From contig CAWEDJ010000019.1 in the NCBI GenBank assembly GCA_963807635.1, positions 1 through 14,850 on the forward strand: a stretch of DNA of 14,850 nt. The letters are read 5' to 3'. A model generated the notes under the pieces. It made no database searches, had not been told where the DNA came from, and was given only the letters and a program-made list of their open reading frames with translations. This DNA comes from an uncultured cyanobacterium (lineage in GTDB: Bacteria; Cyanobacteriota; Cyanobacteriia; Cyanobacteriales; Microcystaceae). A program made the position numbers and the translations under genes. Positions 109 to 14,850 of the stretch are shown piece after piece (within the stretch, counting starts at the first letter, position 1; every line of letters starts with the position of its first letter).

Positions 109-1534
109 TTAATTTTTAGTTTGTAAACGTTGCACTAACTCTTCAAACGATCGCCAATCATCATGATCCGCGATCGCATCCCAAACCTCTTCAATCAAAG
201 GACGTAACAGAGCCGTTTTAGGATTAGCACTTTTTAGGCGATCGCCGACTTGAATAAACTCATCTTTTGGCAAAGACATTAAAACTAAATGATAAAGAAC
301 TTTCCAACTAGTCCAATCTGCCTTTCCTAAATCCGTATTTTCTAAAATTTTAGTCGGATCTTCTCGCCAGCCTAGATTAAAATTCTCCGTTAATTCCGTA
401 AAAAATTGATGATAACCAACCTGACTTTCCTGTAATAATTCAATCGTTTTTTGGAGCAAATCTTGGTCATTAGGAATCTCTGCGGTCGATAATCCTAACT
501 TTTGCAACATCAAAATTTGATAATAACTCTGATAATCTTCTTCAAAATTAGCTAATACTGAATCTAATTCTGAGGCAGGAATAATCATACTTAGGGGAAC
601 TTGCAATAATTCCAAATTCAGACGACAAATCAACGGTTGATTGGCATAGCAATATCGTCCGCCATAGTCGAAATAGGCCGCCGTAAAACCAGGATTATAG
701 GTAGGAATAAACACATACGGGCCATAATCAAAATTTTCCCCCGTAATCGGCATATTATCCGTATTCAAAACCCCATGACAAAAGCCTGCCGCCATCCATT
801 GAGCCGCCAATTGAGCGACACGCCTAACCAATTCTCGATAAAACCGAAGATAACGCTCTGGATTCTGACCCGTCACTTCGGGATAATAAACCTCAATCAC
901 ATGATCTAATAATTTTTCAATCAGATCAGGGCGTTTGATATAGTACAACCGTTCAAAAGTTCCAAACCGAATATGCGATCGGCTAAACCGAATCATCACC
1001 GACGATCGCGTAGGAGACGGTTCATCCCCGCGCCAGAGTCCTTCCCCTGTTTCAATTAAACTCAAACAACGAGAAGTGTTTACCCCTAATGAATGCAACG
1101 CTTCTGCGGCTAAAACTTCTCTCACACCACCTTTTAACGTTAACCTTCCATCGGCACTACGAGAATAGGGCGTTCTTCCCGATCCTTTGGTGCCAAAATC
1201 GTAGAGTTGTCCATCAGTTCCCCTCACCTGACCATATAAAAAAACCCCTACCATCGCCCAAATAGGGGTTATATTCTCCAAATTGATAGCCATGATAGCG
1301 AAGAGCCAACAGGGGAGTCACGCTCTCAAATTTACCAAAAGCCTCGATAAAATGCTCATTTGTTACCGCTTGGCTTTCTAAATTAAGTTTAGGTAATAAA
1401 GCATCATTACGGAAGCGGAGGATTTGCTGGGGAAAGTCGGCGGCAGTGACGGCATCAAAGTAATCATTCCCTAAATTTTCTAAGGCTGGTTCGTAGGGAA
1501 GAGATAAAAAAGGATTGGGAGAGTTATCTGTCAT
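109..1534 (-). CDS. selO: YdiU/SelO family protein adenylyltransferase, frameshifted (about 474 aa if repaired)
   Basis: ATG at 1534 (MTDNSPNPF...[19 protein letters not shown]) joins the 109..1293 frame (LYGQVRG...[15 protein letters not shown]...HGVLNTDNM...DYGPY) if one A is removed from the A7 run at 1238-1244. Confidence 0.92.
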
Positions 1535-1670
1535 TGAGAGATTGAAGGATTTAGGGAGCGGGCGATTTAATGTTATATTCAATCTGAATTTAACACGCTT
1601 TTCGTGGATAAATTTGAGAGAAATTGCTGTAATCCTACGTTTAAATTGACCAACGTTTAAAAAACTTGTT

Positions 1671-2440
1671 ATGTTAGCCAAAAGAATTTTGCCTTGTTTG
1701 GATGTGAATGCTGGCCGAGTCGTGAAAGGGGTGAATTTTGTCGATCTCAAGGATGCGGGCGATCCTGTGGAATTAGCGCGGATTTATAACGAGGCGGGGG
1801 CGGATGAGTTGGTGTTTCTCGATATTACTGCCACCCACGAAGGACGGGACACCATGATTGATGTGGTTTATCGCACGGCTGAAGAAGTTTTTATTCCCCT
1901 GACGGTTGGCGGTGGCATTCAATCCTTAGAAAATATTAAAAATTTGTTACGGGCAGGAGCCGATAAGGTCAGTATTAATTCTGCCGCCGTTCGTAATCCT
2001 GATTTGATTAATCAAGCCAGCGATCGCTTTGGGTCTTCCTGCATTGTGGTGGCGATCGATGCCAGAAAACGGAATGATCCGCAAAATTCAGGCTGGGATG
2101 TGTATGTACGAGGCGGTCGGGAAAATACGGGCATTGATGCGATCGCCTGGGCGAGGGAACTCGCGCAACGGGGAGCAGGAGAATTATTAGTCACCAGTAT
2201 GGATGCGGACGGAACCCAGGCGGGCTATGATTTACCCCTCACCAGGGCGATCGCCGATCAAGTAGAAATTCCCGTCATTGCTTCTGGTGGTGCAGGCAAT
2301 TGTGAACATATTTATCAAGCTCTCACAGAAGGTAAAGCCGAAGCGGCCCTTTTGCCTCTTTGTTGCATTACGGTCAGTTAAGCATTGCGGAAGTTAAAAC
2401 CTACCTCCAGCAAAACCAAGTCCCCATCAGACCAACCTAA
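1671..2440 (+). CDS. hisF: Imidazole glycerol phosphate synthase cyclase subunit HisF, frameshifted near the 3' end (256 aa if repaired)
   Basis: [12 protein letters not shown]...[12 protein letters not shown]...[13 protein letters not shown]...VIASGGAG. Adding one base at about 2353 restores [32 protein letters not shown] ending at 2440. Confidence 0.96.
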
Positions 2441-3766: not shown

Positions 3767-4123
3767 ATGTATTATTTGCCTGAGCCGCCTTATTTTTTGA
3801 TTTTTGTGGGATTATTTGTGGGTCTTACCTGTGGTGCGGCTTTTGAAGCGACACTCAAACAAAAGGTCAGGGTGTGGTTGAATACGCCCACTAGTACGTT
3901 GCAGGACTTGGATTTGCAACTTCCTTTTCTGGGAATTTGTGTCGGAATTTGTGTGTTTTTATCGTCGGGAGTCGAAGTTTTTTTAGGTAGTCGTTTAGTG
4001 TCCTACGCAATTTCTTTACCTGTCACTATTTTTATTGCGGCTTTGGTTTGGAGACAATTGGATAGCCTATTAAAACAATTAAAAGCAGGGGGGTCTAAGG
4101 CGATCGATTTAGACGTATTTTAA
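3767..4123 (+). CDS. Hypothetical membrane protein with about three transmembrane helices
   Basis: ORF MYYLPEPPYFL...GLTCGAAFEATLKQ...PFLGICVGICVFL...GGSKAIDLD. An alternative upstream ATG lies at 3737. Confidence 0.8.
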   Translation: MYYLPEPPYFLIFVGLFVGLTCGAAFEATLKQKVRVWLNTPTSTLQDLDLQLPFLGICVGICVFLSSGVEVFLGSRLVSYAISLPVTIFIAALVWRQLDSLLKQLKAGGSKAIDLDVF

Positions 4124-4217
4124 AAATAAAATAACCTTGTAGGGGCGAATTGCGTTCGCCCTTTTCCTATTTTTAAAAATAAAATAACCCTGTAGGGGCA
4201 AATTGCGATCGCCCTTT
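4118..4217 (+). repeat. Two-copy tandem duplication (53-bp period), each copy with a GTAG-tagged REP-like hairpin
   Basis: TTTTAAAAATAAAATAACCyTGTAGGGGCrAATTGCGwTCGCCCTTT at 4118 and 4171. Copy 1 stem is GGGCGAA(4143-4149)/TTCGCCC(4155-4161). Confidence 0.85.
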
Positions 4218-4240: not shown

Positions 4241-5246
4241 TTAAACAAATTTAACTTCATGTTCCAAGGGTTTATCTTGCTCAAAATCCGTCAGATTCCT
4301 AATGGTTGTTAGGGAAATATCTTTTAACGCATTTTCCGTAAAAAAGGCTTGATGGGCCGTAATCACCACATTAGAAAAAGATTGAAGTAATTGAAAAGTA
4401 TCATCTTGGATAATGGTATCGGAAAGATCTTCAAAGAAAAGATGTTCTTCTTCTTCATAAACATCAATGCCCACATAACCAATTTTTCCTGTTTTAATTC
4501 CTTCAATTACCGCTTTGGTGTCAACTAATTTACCCCGACTGGTATTAATTAACATGACCCCTGGTTTCATTCTTGCGATCGCGTCTTGATTAACAATATT
4601 TTGGGTTTCAGGAAATAATGGACAGTGGAGAGAAATAATATCTGAACCTTGCCATAGTTCCTCTAAAGAAACATATTTCGCGTTGCCCATTTTCTCGAAA
4701 TTCTCATTAGGATAGGCATCATAGCCCAACAGATGACAGCCAAAACCTGACATAATTTGAGCAAAGATTTGTCCAATTTTCCCTGTTCCAATGACACCAA
4801 CCGTGCGATCGCGCAGATCAAACCCTAATAACCCATCAAGAGAAAAATTATCATCCCGAACTCGATTGTAAGCCCGATATAACTTACGATTGAGCATAAG
4901 GATTAGACCAACCGCGTGTTCTGCTACTGAATAGGGCGAATAGGTGGTTACTCGAACAACTTTAATTCCTAATTTGGCCGCACTTTCGAGATTGACATTA
5001 TTAAATCCCGTGCAACGAAGGGCAATTAATCTTATACCGTCCTTTGCCAAAATTTCTAAAGTTTCCGTTCCCAGATCATCATTCACAAAGACACAAACCG
5101 CCTCAAAACCCGTTGCCAGGGATGCAGTTTTTGGTTCTAGCCGTGACTCAAAATAAACTAACTCATGGTTAGCCTGGGATTCCCTATTCTCTAGATCGAG
5201 AAATTGGCGATCGGTAAGCTTTCGTACTAAAAACAGCGACTTTCAT
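4241..5246 (-). CDS. ldhA: D-lactate dehydrogenase / D-2-hydroxyacid dehydrogenase, frameshifted near the 5' end (334 aa if repaired)
   Basis: ATG at 5246 gives MKVAVFSTKAY. Removing one base at 5213-5214 gives DRQFL...AVCVFVNDDL, continuing to ALRCTGFNNV, YSPYSVAEHA, GVIGTGKIG, INTSRG, DVYEEE and TAHQAFFT. Confidence 0.92.
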
Positions 5247-5493
5247 GATTTAGATTGATTAAATTTTACAACTTCTAATTTTGTAATAGATACAGCAGAT
5301 TACGTTGTGATAACAGACAAAATATTGGCAGAAAATATATTATGTCCTTACGTTATGAGCAACAAAAATATTATAAAAGTAAGGGTTTAGTTGCCAAATC
5401 AAAAAACATTAAGACTTGATAAACAATTAACTAAGTAGATGGGTCTTAAAATTTATAAGATCCCCCCGTCCTACGAACACCCCCCTTATCAAT

Positions 5494-5617
5494 CTACCGT
5501 TTACACACAAGTCTTTCTGTCTAAGTTTTGATCCCCCCAACCCCCCTTTATAAGGGGGATGCCGTAGGCAGGGGGATCAAACTTTTAGGCATACAAGGAG
5601 ATGTGTCTACACAGTAG
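5494..5617. mobile_element. 124-bp MITE with 19-bp IS4-family (IS50/Tn5-like) terminal inverted repeats and a degenerate 10-bp target duplication
   Basis: Left end CTACCGTTTACACACAAGT (5494-5512) versus reverse complement of the right end CTACTGTGTAGACACATCT (5599-5617): 14/19 identical. Flanks CCTTATCAAT (5484-5493) and TCTTATTAAG (5618-5627) match 7/10. Confidence 0.75.
5523..5585. repeat. Inner REP-like palindromic element carried inside the MITE
   Basis: AAGTTTTGATCCCCCC-AA-CCCCCCTTTATAAGGGGG-A-TGCCGTAGGCA-GGGGGATCAAACTTT; near-identical to the repeat at 14581-14618. Confidence 0.85.
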
Positions 5618-5725
5618 TCTTATTAAGTGGGTCAGGGGGGATCGAGTAAAAAACTCTTGTTCGGTTTAATTGTAACTACTTATTTATACTAAACTAAACG
5701 CCTACTGAATCAAGGAGATCGCTAT

Positions 5726-8154
5726 TTAATAAGGCCACTTAAAGTGAGTTAATTCATCCTTATCCGTTCCATGTTCATAGGCATAATTACGGGCATCAAT
5801 TTGGAGATTTTTGAACTTCTCCTTAGCATGGGCCCCTGCTACCTGTAACTCAGGAACTCGGTCAATCACATCGATCGCCAAACTAAAGCGGTCAATCTGA
5901 TTACTAATGGCTAATTCCAAAGGAGTATTAATATTCCCCTTTTCCTTATAACCGCGAACATGGAAATTATCGTGGTTTGTCCGACTATAGGCTAAACGGT
6001 GAATCAACCAGGGATAACCATGAAAATTGAAAATGACAGGTTTATCAATGGTAAACATACTGTCAAAATCCTTATCCGATAATCCATGAGGATGTTCCGT
6101 TTCAGGGACTAATTTAAACAGATCCACCACATTAATAAAGCGAATCAACAAATCAGGAAATTCTTCCCGTAATAAAACCACTGCGGCCAGAGCTTCTTTC
6201 GTTGGAATATCTCCCGCTGTTGCCATCACCACATCAGGTTCATAGCCTTGATCATTACTCGCCCAATCCCAAATTCCCAAACCTTTGGTGCAGTGTTGAA
6301 TAGCCGCATCCATGTCTAGATATTGCAAATGTAACTGCTTGTCGCAAACAATCACATTGATATAGTTCCGACTCTTTAAACAGTGATTCGCAACAGACAG
6401 CAAAGAATTCACATCGGGTGGTAAATAAATCCGTGTTACCGAAGGACTTTTATTGACGACTAAATCTAAAAAGCCAGGATCTTGGTGGGTAAAGCCGTTA
6501 TGATCTTGTCGCCAAACCGTTGAGGTAATCAACATATTTAGGGAAGAAATATCTGCCCGCCAGGGAATATGACGACAAATATCCAACCATTTTGCGTGTT
6601 GATTAAACATGGAATCAATCACATGGACAAAGGATTCATAGGTCAAAAAAATCCATGCCGTCCTGTCAGTAAATACGCTTCAAGCCAGCCCTCTAGGGTA
6701 TGCTCAGACAGCATTTCCATGACGCGACCATCGATCGCTAATTCTCCACCATCGGCATCTTCTTCCAGATATTCTTCAATCCAGAATTTTTTGCTGACTT
6801 CGTAAATATCTTGCAGTTTATTGGAGGTGTTTTCATCGGGGCCAAAAACCCGAAAATTAGTCATGTTATTGGCCATGACATCCCGTAGAAATTTACCCAA
6901 CGGACGGGTATTTTCCGCTTCAACTTGACCTGGATGGGGTAAATCTAGGGCATAGTCCCGAAAATCTGGCATTTTGAGGGCTTTGCGCAATAAGCCGCCA
7001 TTGGCAATGGGATTCGCCCCCATGCGTTTTGAACCTGTAGGAGCTAATTCCTTGAGTTCAGGAATCAGGATTCCATTTTCGTCAAATAATTCTTCGGGCT
7101 TATAACTGCGTATCCAGGCTTCTAATTGCTCGAAGTGGGCAAGATTTTCTTTGACACCAGCCAACGGGACTTGGTGCGATCGCCAAAAACCTTCAACCTT
7201 TTTACCATCAACGAAATCGGGGCCAGTCCACCCCTTAGGACTCCGTAGAACAATCATCGGCCAACGAGGACGAGTGGCTTTACCCGTACTGCGGGCTTCC
7301 TGTTGGATTTTATGAATTTCTTCGACACAATAATCCAAGGTCGCCGCCATCGCCTGGTGCATACTTTCGGGATCGGAACCTTCCACAAAATAGGGCGTAT
7401 AACCGTAGCCAATAAAGAGAGATTCCAGTTCTTCGTGACTAATACGGGATAAAAGAGTCGGATTGTTAATTTTATAACCATTCAAGTGCAGAATCGGTAA
7501 AACTGCCCCGTCTCGAATGGGATTAATAAATTTATTAGAATGCCAAGAAGTTGCCAGAGGCCCCGTTTCCGATTCCCCATCTCCCACCACTGCCACACTA
7601 ATCAAATCAGGATTATCAAAAACCGTTCCAAAAGCGTGGGAGATGCTATAACCCAATTCACCCCCTTCATGAATAGACCCAGGGGTTTCAGGCGTGCAGT
7701 GGCTCCCTATTCCGCCAGGAAAAGAAAATTGTTTAAAAAACTTCTTTAATCCCTCTTCATCTTCACTTTTATCGGGATAGGTTTCCGAATAGGCTCCTTC
7801 TAGATAAACTGGCCCCAAAACCCCAGGCGCACCATGCCCTGGCCCTGCCAAATAAATCATGCTTTGATCATATTTTTTGATGACGCGATTCAGGTGAGTG
7901 TAGATAAAAGATAATCCTGGACTCGATCCCCAGTGACCCAAAAGACGATTTTTGATGTGTTCAATTTTTAAAGGCTCTTTAAGGAGGGGATTGTCCTGCA
8001 AATAAATCATTCCAACTGCTAAATAGTTGCAGGCTTGCCAGTAAGCATGGGTTTTACGCAAGTCTTCCCCAGTGAGAGGGGTTCCTTTAACCGTTGATCT
8101 GGCTTGACCGAAGGCACTAATGGCCGAAATCGTCTTTTCTGGTGCTGCGACCAT
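5726..8154 (-). CDS. xfp: Phosphoketolase (xylulose-5-P/fructose-6-P), frameshifted (about 809 aa if repaired)
   Basis: [47 protein letters not shown], then [16 protein letters not shown] and HVRGYKEKG. One base is missing at about 6644-6651 (expected GFFsTYESF). GGAG RBS lies upstream of the ATG at 8154. Confidence 0.95.
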
Positions 8155-8340
8155 AAACAATCACTCCAAGTTAAATAATCAATTTCTAGGGTAATAGGAA
8201 AACTGCCAACTTGAACATCTAATTTTGATAAGTTGCCTGTTTGATCAAACCTTAAGAAATAGTTAAGCAGAAGATTAAAGATAAAAATAAGCGGCGATTA
8301 CAAATAAAAAATTTGATTTTCCTAACATTTTTCAGGAAAC

Positions 8341-13139: not shown

Positions 13140-14183
13140 GTGACGGACACCCATTCTCCCCATTGGCCCACGCTTCTACAGCAATTACTTGATCGCCATT
13201 CCCTTTCTCAAGTACAAGCTTCCCAACTGATGCAAGGTTGGCTAAAGGAAGAAATTCCCGCTGTTCTCTCTGGAGCAATTCTCGCCGCCATTCAGGCTAA
13301 GGGCGTTTCGGCAGAGGAATTAGCAGGCATGGCCCAGGTTTTGCAGGGTCAATCCTTACAACAAAATCTGATTGCCCATTCCCAACCCCTAGTCGATACC
13401 TGTGGTACGGGAGGCGATGGCTCATCTACCTTTAATATCTCCACCGCAGTCGCCTTTGTGGTCGCCGCCGCAGGGGTCAAAGTCGCCAAGCATGGTAATC
13501 GTTCGGCATCCAGTAAGGTGGGTTCCGCCGATGTCCTAGAGGCTCTAGGCATTAATTTAACTGCCCCTTCTGAAAAAGTCTCCGCCGCCGTTGAAGCCGT
13601 AGGCATTACTTTTCTCTTTGCTCCTGGTTGGCATCCCGCCCTCAAAAGTGTGGCCGCCCTCCGCAAAACCCTCAATATTAGAACGATTTTTAATTTGCTC
13701 GGCCCCTTAGTGAATCCTTTACGCCCAACAGGTCAAGTTATTGGGGTGTATGATGCCCAATTTTTAACGCCTTTAGCGGAAGCCTTGGCAGTTTTGGGAA
13801 CCTCAAAGGCAATGATTGTTCATGGTAGGGAACGCTTAGATGAAGCAGGTTTGGGAGATATAACGGATATTGCTTTACTCACGAATAATCAAGTAAATCT
13901 AAGTACCTTAAATCCTCAAGAGTTAGATCTAACACCTGTCTCCATTTCTGAGTTAAAGGGGGGAAATTTAATCGAAAATACGGATATTCTGCGAAATGTG
14001 TTACAGGGAAAGGGGACTCTGGCTCAATTGGAGGCTGTGGCGTTGAATGCGTCGTTGGCTCTACAGGTGGGTGAAGCGGTAACCTGGGGAAATCATCAGC
14101 AGGGCATTGAAACAGCGAAAGATATTTTGAAGAGTGGCTTGGCTTGGCAAAAGTTAGAGGCTTTAGTTGATTTTTTAAGGTAA
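13140..14183 (+). CDS. trpD: Anthranilate phosphoribosyltransferase
   Basis: [54 protein letters not shown]. Confidence 0.96.
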
Positions 14184-14191
14184 GTTTTAGC

Positions 14192-14230
14192 AGCCCCCCT
14201 TATCAAGGGGGGTAGGGGGGGATCAAACCT
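14192..14230. repeat. Left inverted repeat of the DUF559 cassette (internally palindromic)
   Basis: AGCCCCCCTTATCAAGGGGGGTAGGGGGGGATCAAACCT is the reverse complement of 14581-14618 apart from one extra G. Confidence 0.92.
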
Positions 14231-14580
14231 CCAATCACCCCACAAATACCCTCAAAATTAGTCAAAACTTCTTCATTTGTAAATCTGATTACTGTTAACC
14301 CATAACCTTCTAAAATTTGAGTTCTTTCTAAGTCGTAAGTCTGAGCATTTTCGCTGTTATGGCTATCTCCATCAATTTCAATCACTAATTTTAATTGAGG
14401 ACAATAAAAGTCAACAATAAATTGACCAATGGGTCTTTGGCGATGGACTCTATATTTGAAGTTTCTTAAATATTCATACCAAAGTTTTCTTTCAGCCTTG
14501 GTCATGTTTTTGCGGAGTTCTTTGGCGCGTTCTACGAGTTTGGGATTGTAGGGTAGATGGTGATGATCTGTTAGTTGCAT
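14203..14580 (-). CDS. DUF559 family (Vsr-like, PD-(D/E)XK) endonuclease
   Basis: RAKELRKNMTKAERKLW..LR...RQRPIGQFIVDFYC..LKLVIEIDGDSH...D.ERT..LE..G..VIRFTNEEV. If the G7 run is really G6, the ORF ends IPPTPLDKGGC* at 14187. Confidence 0.9.
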   Translation of the reverse strand: MQLTDHHHLPYNPKLVERAKELRKNMTKAERKLWYEYLRNFKYRVHRQRPIGQFIVDFYCPQLKLVIEIDGDSHNSENAQTYDLERTQILEGYGLTVIRFTNEEVLTNFEGICGVIGGLIPPYPP

Positions 14581-14618
14581 AGGTTTGATCCCCCCTACCC
14601 CCCTTGATAAGGGGGGCT
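14581..14618. repeat. Right inverted repeat of the DUF559 cassette
   Basis: AGGTTTGATCCCCCCTACCCCCCTTGATAAGGGGGGCT directly abuts the ATG at 14580. Confidence 0.92.
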
Positions 14619-14661: not shown

Positions 14662-14850
14662 TTACAAGTCGTTGCGCGAAAAAAAGAGACACCACCCCCA
14701 GTCATTACCACACTTCACCCTCCCCACCCAACTCCAACCTATTGGAAGGTGTGCCTTTTCACTTCCATCTAATAAAAAAGTTAGCTCGTCATAGCTCAAC
14801 CAGTTTCCGCTCCGCCGCCAACCCACTTGGCCAGCAAATTTTTTATAGAC
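14662..14850 (-). CDS. C-terminal part of a GUN4-domain protein (partial; not in the ORF track)
   Basis: Open frame from the window edge: VYKKFAGQVGWRRSGNWLSYDELTFLLDGSEKAHLPIGWSWVGRVKCGNDWGWCLFFSRNDL*. The VGWR..W..Y..LTF....HLP pattern is typical of the GUN4 domain. Confidence 0.8.
   Translation of the reverse strand, partial: VYKKFAGQVGWRRSGNWLSYDELTFLLDGSEKAHLPIGWSWVGRVKCGNDWGWCLFFSRNDL

Follow-up and report, generated by a model that had tools for sequence, protein, structure and literature searches.

The gene for a DUF559 (Vsr-like, YcjD-family) endonuclease described here, from an uncultured cyanobacterium of the Microcystaceae, lies between inverted copies of a short repeat that has the layout of an intrastrand DNA triplex. 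On balance we favour the view that the protein is the cognate, structure-specific nuclease of this repeat, cutting at the triplex motif and leaving the copying to host repair, in a partnership resembling the RAYT/REPIN systems but with a different chemistry. Recognition, cutting and repair-based copying are all three steps that we infer. The unit would be one member of a widespread nuclease–repeat partnership, in which the nuclease usually lies between two inward-facing repeats. When replication or transcription leaves the strand unpaired, the motif would fold; the nuclease would recognise this fold while the DNA is transiently single-stranded, and nick or cut there; and host break repair would copy the repeat, and occasionally the whole cassette, to new places, reshuffling the ends. 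The nuclease gene itself, like that of a RAYT, would persist as one or two intact copies and seldom move, and the copy described here may have come to the flank of trpD along with a NACHT-GUN4 gene.

The nuclease gene and its flanking repeats

In the window (the whole 14,850-nt stretch of DNA analysed), the nuclease gene occupies positions 14203..14580 on the minus strand and is intact, its product being a free-standing single domain of 125 aa (Pfam match to PF04480, E 3.7e-31). At its 5' end, the right repeat (14581..14618, minus strand, 38 nt), whose G-rich strand is the sense strand of the gene, stops directly at the ATG (14580), and a run of G some 10 nt ahead of this start codon could serve as a ribosome-binding site. 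At its 3' end, the left repeat (14192..14230, 39 nt, with its G-rich strand on the plus strand), of which the right one is an inverted copy, encodes the C-terminus GLIPPYPP, with the stop codon TGA inside the hairpin loop. The left repeat and the reverse complement of the right are identical except for one base (G7 versus G6). The initial annotation had reported this framing, including the abutted start codon and the repeat-encoded C-terminus, and had seen no target duplication; all of this holds, no direct repeat being present in the flanks of the unit. It had also placed the unit between two unrelated convergent genes. Both neighbours are indeed convergent, and the one at 13140..14183 (plus strand), a Glycos_transf_3 host gene that we take to be trpD from what we know of the family, and whose stop codon lies 9 bp before the repeat–nuclease block, is unrelated; but the other, of which the 3' end (14662..14850, minus strand, cut by the contig end) encodes a GUN4 domain and which in relatives is a NACHT-GUN4 gene, accompanies the nuclease, on its upstream side, in nine of nine close relatives.

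The extra G (position 14215) falls in a homopolymer and is absent from contigs of related populations, so that it may be a polymorphism or an assembly slip; with G6, the frame would continue through the hairpin, as in Microcystis copies. Apparent housekeeping genes elsewhere in the window (109-1750, 1671-2381, 4241-5086 and 5726-8160) look frameshift-split or truncated, which suggests indel errors in the assembly and so bears on this difference. A stop codon within the hairpin was considered as a rule for the family and rejected, since it holds at only 12 of 98 loci. The window gave no Rfam matches; at 4118-4217 it has two tandem 47-nt copies of a GTAG-tagged palindrome, a RAYT-type REP unrelated to the DUF559 unit.

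Read on its G-rich strand, the repeat comprises a C-stem (CCCCCCTT), the loop ATC, a G-stem (AAGGGGGG), a second loop TA(G) (TAG in the left repeat) and a third strand (GGGGGGAT), giving C6TT-ATC-AAG6-TA(G)-G6AT in full, with stems C6TT/AAG6. The third block is a mirror copy of the purine stem in which A is faced by either T or A, and eight of eight triads are possible at both ends of the window unit (at least six being the criterion). To judge from its sequence, the repeat thus has the layout of a class II intrastrand triplex, as in the BoxC/PIT/TM class, which is more than a REP hairpin; the earlier description of a palindromic, REP-like repeat was right about the hairpin (of unremarkable stability, z -1.4 to -2.0, in a folding model of duplex stems only) but incomplete about the layout, and the terminal GTAG/CGTC tag of REPs is lacking. 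BoxC/PIT/TM motifs (TMECO in E. coli) have the same succession of C-stem, loop, G-stem, loop and mirror G-rich third strand, and are likewise dispersed, often in inverted pairs, patchy between strains, rich in cyanobacteria and locally unstable (PMC4666352, in part). They differ in that the window stems depart from the TMECO consensus, CCCTCNCCC N3-6 GGGNGAGGG N3 GGGNGAGGG, which the window repeat does not match, and in that the window has a nuclease gene between its motifs. TMECO proper is present at other DUF559 loci and at E. coli ycjD. According to the accessible part of Holder (2015; PMC4666352), triplex folding of TMECO was demonstrated in vitro (CD/NMR) and no triplex footprint was seen in vivo; BoxC/PIT/TM motifs are abundant in Microcystis and other cyanobacteria and are linked to instability; and no transposase or integrase was found near the E. 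coli TMECO motifs.

The protein itself looks like a working Vsr-type nuclease. All 39 homologues in the alignment (those of the loci fetched that entered it) share residues D57, E68, D70, G71 and H74 without exception, and from their place in the D...ExDGxxH motif, D57 and H74 probably correspond to D51 and H69 of Vsr. Foldseek matched the Neisseria DUF559 structure 3hrl (E 1.7e-5; by sequence, E 1.3e-15), 3r3p (E 7.4e-4) and 1cw0 (E 0.15), and the protein combines this Vsr-like fold with the intact motif residues; E. coli YcjD is 44% identical to it. With dN/dS at 0.09-0.27 in 14 of 17 pairs (the other three being saturated), the gene is under purifying selection, with its active site intact. 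An active site of the Vsr/EDxHD type hydrolyses DNA, and strand transfer in the style of a RAYT is impossible for it. The accessible text of PMC3239194 likewise describes Vsr-type chemistry as hydrolytic, without a covalent strand-transfer step. Vsr and the EDxHD enzyme I-Bth0305I have the same fold and the same conserved acidic and histidine residues as the window nuclease (PMC3239194 and PMC3424549, both in part), and I-Bth0305I offers a precedent for selfish spread by cutting and repair (Taylor, 2011, PMC3239194; Steczkiewicz, 2012, PMC3424549). Unlike EDxHD homing endonucleases, the window nuclease is framed by repeats and has no intron, intein or separate DNA-binding domain; unlike Vsr, it has no adjacent cytosine methyltransferase, and no methyltransferase partner is present at its locus.

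Repeats beside DUF559 genes in other genomes

The checks proposed in the initial annotation included enrichment of the repeats beside DUF559 genes and co-phylogeny of repeat and nuclease, and both were borne out. Among 92 DUF559 loci (106 had a match, and 14 were dropped for short or masked flanks), an inverted frame with a score of at least 30 in 250-bp flanks was found at 56, versus 1 of 290 offset controls, and after dereplication at 85% at 45 of 72; a strong inverted frame is missing at 36 of the 92. The triplex motif occurs in the expected orientation at 64 of 90 DUF559 loci (33 at both ends) versus 0 of 586 control strands, and opposite-orientation motifs are also frequent (29 and 27 of the 90); at these loci, which were not dereplicated for either count, the third block fitted a mirror repeat better than a direct repeat at 60 flanks and worse at 6, with 36 ties. 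When TMECO, as published, served instead as the starting pattern, 4 of 124 metagenome loci (131 kb) proved to hold a DUF559 gene, again in the same polarity, and none was found in an unmatched background of 84 loci (278 kb).

In a nuclease tree of 103 rows (three broken rows having been dropped), one supported clade has the CCCCTT repeat type in 31 of the 32 rows listed, and another cyanobacterial supported clade has the CCCCTCC type in 25 of the 27 listed. The two clades share host families, and one Snowella genome has one of each (L078 and L133). Protein identity tracks repeat similarity (Mantel rho 0.37, or 0.55 for the 41 cyanobacterial loci; 0 of 500 permutations), and the two ends of a locus are strict mutual best matches in only 22 of 45 cases. 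Among 40 relatives, the cognate nuclease clade is present in 11, all 11 of which have at least seven repeats, whereas 11 of the 29 without it have at least five (the kin in both sets being not independent). The association as a whole spans many phyla, with repeat types that are specific to clades.

A survey of programmed inversions found DUF559 genes enriched among them (odds ratio 14.3; PMC9881135, in part), which fits their framing by inverted repeats. At three loci (L015, L021 and L028), the DUF559 cassette, repeats included, is part of a longer open frame, of 1400, 975 and 389 aa, respectively, with which it is in frame.

The repeat class and the protein family were both known already, and their pairing was found in no open-access paper searched: in open-access text we found no paper that pairs DUF559 or ycjD with BoxC/PIT/TM repeats, and the main text of Holder (2015; PMC4666352), as far as it was accessible, has no occurrence of 'ycjD' or 'endonuclease', although its supplementary tables of flanking genes may list ycjD.

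Dispersal of the repeat and possible movement of the unit

A fuzzy search of this genome gave 59 copies of the repeat, confirming the dispersal that the initial annotation had proposed to check by a genome-wide count. Only two inward-facing pairs within 1 kb occur among the 59 (0.2 would be expected from random placement), and both enclose intact DUF559 genes; the repeat pattern read backwards had no matches in all 41 genomes. The second intact DUF559 gene (in contig C73) is likewise bounded by a matching pair, made up of another variant of the repeat, and three decayed DUF559 fragments in the genome have no repeat nearby.

Much of the copy number in this genome is a matter of hitch-hiking in MITEs. 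MITE shells, of which there are three kinds, enclose at least 43 of the 59 copies; type A has TAAGTAG-type ends, and type B, with CTACCGTGTACAC-type ends and 9-bp target duplications, inserts into the repeat hairpin itself. In the window, gene-less repeat copies lie in nested MITEs at 5443..5690 (boundaries approximate), where a type B element (~5493-5627, with its repeat at 5530-5558) has entered the hairpin of a type A one, and such nesting of B in A recurs at C32, C36, C49 and C105. Four repeat-rich genomes, each about 99% complete, are without PF04480: G011 (43 copies), G004 (21), G009 (8) and G020 (6). Of five G011 loci, four were inspected, and three of these are type A MITEs.

These shells, with the target duplications of type B and the existence of repeat-rich genomes without DUF559, would be expected if the repeats spread through MITE transposases, replication slippage and triplex-induced instability, DUF559 being cargo or a tolerant landing site that keeps acquired repeats. 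The motif is itself tied to instability (Holder, 2015; PMC4666352, in part), and DUF559 was found within 700 bp of the window's motif at none of 135 viral loci, both of which agree with such a passenger role. We nevertheless think it unlikely. The three shells differ while the core is common, so that the core entered each separately, and solo copies bear no shell. The association extends over many phyla, with clade-specific repeat types and two types in one genome, and the two RAYT-like genes of this genome bear other repeats. Nor does another mobility family recur beside TMECO: among the 185 ORFs nearby, 137 were scanned with Pfam (the two longest at each locus, which leaves small ORFs aside), yielding one IS110 and no recurring rival enzyme family.

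The solo, in-frame copies without a MITE shell (G000:C22:24733, C75:66340 and C7:2619; L177-L179) occupy variable loops of conserved genes, two of the glutamate-synthase type and one of the glycine-decarboxylase type, presumably gltB and gcvP to judge from the translations. In one glutamate-synthase-type gene, the in-frame repeat is present in G000 and G001 and absent from G003 and G004, which means that a bare repeat does arise de novo; the insertion adds 39 bp as a local replacement, without duplication. In G014, roughly the same C22 site holds another variant of the repeat. A repeat-bearing region at G000:C3:11598 and 13004 is duplicated in inverted orientation and almost without change, a gene end being doubled along with it; either an assembly fold-back or a rearrangement driven by the repeat might explain this.

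The genome also has three PF01797 genes, none of them at this locus, two being RAYT-like and one IS200-like. The RAYT-like genes (G000:C55:32581-33252 and C83:43122-43673) are each framed by palindromic repeats of their own. A RAYT was considered as the mobiliser of the repeat described here and ruled out, as the RAYT-like and IS200-like genes bear other repeats.

As for the unit as a whole, the initial annotation had proposed a 427-bp autonomous mobile element, a claim that found no support. In its full form, this would be a mini-transposon in which a repeat–gene–repeat unit of 0.4-0.5 kb excises or copies itself and mobilises gene-less copies in trans. Some observations are of the kind that such an element would leave: the tight inverted framing and matched ends; the 15 of 24 other clade members that share neither flank with any other locus; and the break of synteny at trpD, where the outer edge of the left repeat is the point at which similarity to the congeners' trpD flank stops. 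But differing neighbourhoods across genera are also predicted by ordinary loss of synteny, and the nine closest homologues (86-100% identity) all lie behind the same NACHT-GUN4 gene, with only the other flank varying. Intact DUF559 copies number one or two per genome, and ycjD occupies a median of one place, and never more than two, across 3378 E. coli genomes. MITE shells account for at least 43 of the 59 repeat copies, and four genomes have 6-43 copies without PF04480. A target duplication is lacking; an autonomous IS/TIR transposon would be expected to leave near-identical copies in contexts unrelated to one another, and none were found; and neither trpD nor pntB nor the C73 copy offered a clean empty site. 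A look at the trpD 3' flank in relatives had been suggested as a check, and its outcome was mixed: all five congeners searched lack the repeat–nuclease unit, but what lies beyond their trpD flank is unrelated sequence, which does not amount to an empty site. Four public runs (contigs only, from relatives, at a word share of 0.2-0.3) showed no joint of the kind that excision or inversion would leave, and it is established knowledge that a nuclease fold of this kind has no strand-transfer chemistry. The window's 427-bp unit is therefore probably not autonomous, and we regard a mini-transposon of this sort as distinctly improbable.

One further locus, L004 (G006:C155), has its cassette between direct duplications of about 75 bp of host coding sequence. 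So long a duplication of host sequence could be counted in favour of a mini-transposon, but as a footprint it suggests repair rather than transposition.

What the window's locus does look like is a rearrangement hot spot that travels with its NACHT-GUN4 neighbour. The GUN4-side repeat occurs without the nuclease in G003 and G014; at five loci, repeat and ATG are separated by a spacer and additional repeats, direct abutment being one of several arrangements; and the repeat ends are often tandemly amplified (at both ends in L002/L062 and L072-L077), in part as units that take in the beginning of the nuclease gene (~25 nt). Footprints free of duplication, amplified ends and changes of flank at the repeat edge all fit the cut-and-repair partnership that we favour. 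Two further ideas were tried and rejected. A composite of the form repeat–NACHT/GUN4–repeat–DUF559–repeat failed because the repeat that precedes NACHT in G015 belongs to a type A MITE and lacks a conserved counterpart there in five Microcystis-labelled genomes; and a putative relic of a DUF559 3' end, inverted and decayed, which seemed by eye to follow the GUN4-side repeat, beat shuffles in only one of eight comparisons (9/1000).

ycjD of E. coli and comparable systems

The E. coli homologue permits a comparison far from cyanobacteria. In K-12, the ycjD stop codon falls in a degenerate BoxC-like hairpin, and a full TMECO lies 168 bp from ycjD, with none upstream; at this locus (L282), a 39-bp duplication of the ycjD 3' end precedes the TMECO. 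The gene was found in 3378 of 5426 E. coli genomes; in those without it, a TetR gene follows in its place. TMECO counts, made in 10 of the 17 strains fetched, were 23, 29, 14 and 12 in ycjD-positive strains and 1, 11, 8, 2, 3 and 1 in ycjD-negative ones, with ycjD status determined genome-wide by protein in four strains and from the locus in the others; this contrast follows phylogroups (PMC12817139, in part). Throughout phylogroups A, B1 and C, ycjD (fabI-ycjD-sapF) keeps to a single locus. Other phylogroups have a TetR gene and an efflux operon instead, according to the accessible part of PMC12817139, in which the word 'repeat' is absent.

Such stability across phylogroups, together with single-copy status, purifying selection and the Vsr-like fold, might indicate a domesticated host enzyme that resolves triplex or hairpin structures or repairs mismatches, with repeats that regulate or protect the gene. 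Of the readings considered here we find this the hardest to credit, given the patchy distribution (the cognate clade in 11 of 40 relatives), the decayed copies, the unstable and tandemly amplified ends, and the absence of a methyltransferase partner at the window locus.

The proposed nuclease–repeat partnership has its nearest analogues in systems built around a transposase. In RAYT/TnpA-REP REPtrons and in TIRYT/TIRtrons, as here, a low-copy enzyme gene lies within inverted repeats that are also dispersed without the gene (Di Nocera, 2013; PMC3733652, in part). The analogy to RAYT/REP drawn in the initial annotation thus holds for the arrangement, the window gene having its cognate repeats in inverted order on either side and further copies of them across the genome, but not for the chemistry: the enzyme of RAYT/REPIN systems is an HUH/Y1 tyrosine transposase (PF01797), whereas that of the window is a Vsr-like hydrolytic nuclease (PF04480), with no strand transfer. 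Cyanobacterial small dispersed repeats (SDR), reportedly described by Elhai et al. in 2008, and Rickettsia palindromic elements are likewise tiny repeats, nested in MITEs and in frame in genes, and we know of no link to DUF559 for either. The window repeat may already bear an SDR name. The SDR of Elhai (2008) are cited in PMC4390886, and the Rickettsia elements are mentioned in PMC3733652.

DUF559 is, to our knowledge, a common nuclease family with no known substrate. BoxC/PIT/TM repeats, for their part, have been known since the 1990s, occur in thousands across bacteria and mark unstable loci, without a known function or spreading enzyme (Holder, 2015; PMC4666352, in part). DUF559 is thus a candidate partner for this long-known class, and the pairing gives the repeat class and the nuclease family each one specific prediction. 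More speculatively, DUF559/YcjD proteins in general might be triplex-specific endonucleases and the missing enzyme of BoxC/PIT/TM, forming a selfish cut-and-repair class without a transposase that causes local instability from E. coli to cyanobacteria; we put this forward as a tentative extension only. If the partnership proposed here is real, it would mean that a DNA triplex is what this nuclease cuts in nature, and that the repeat spreads by break repair in place of transposition.
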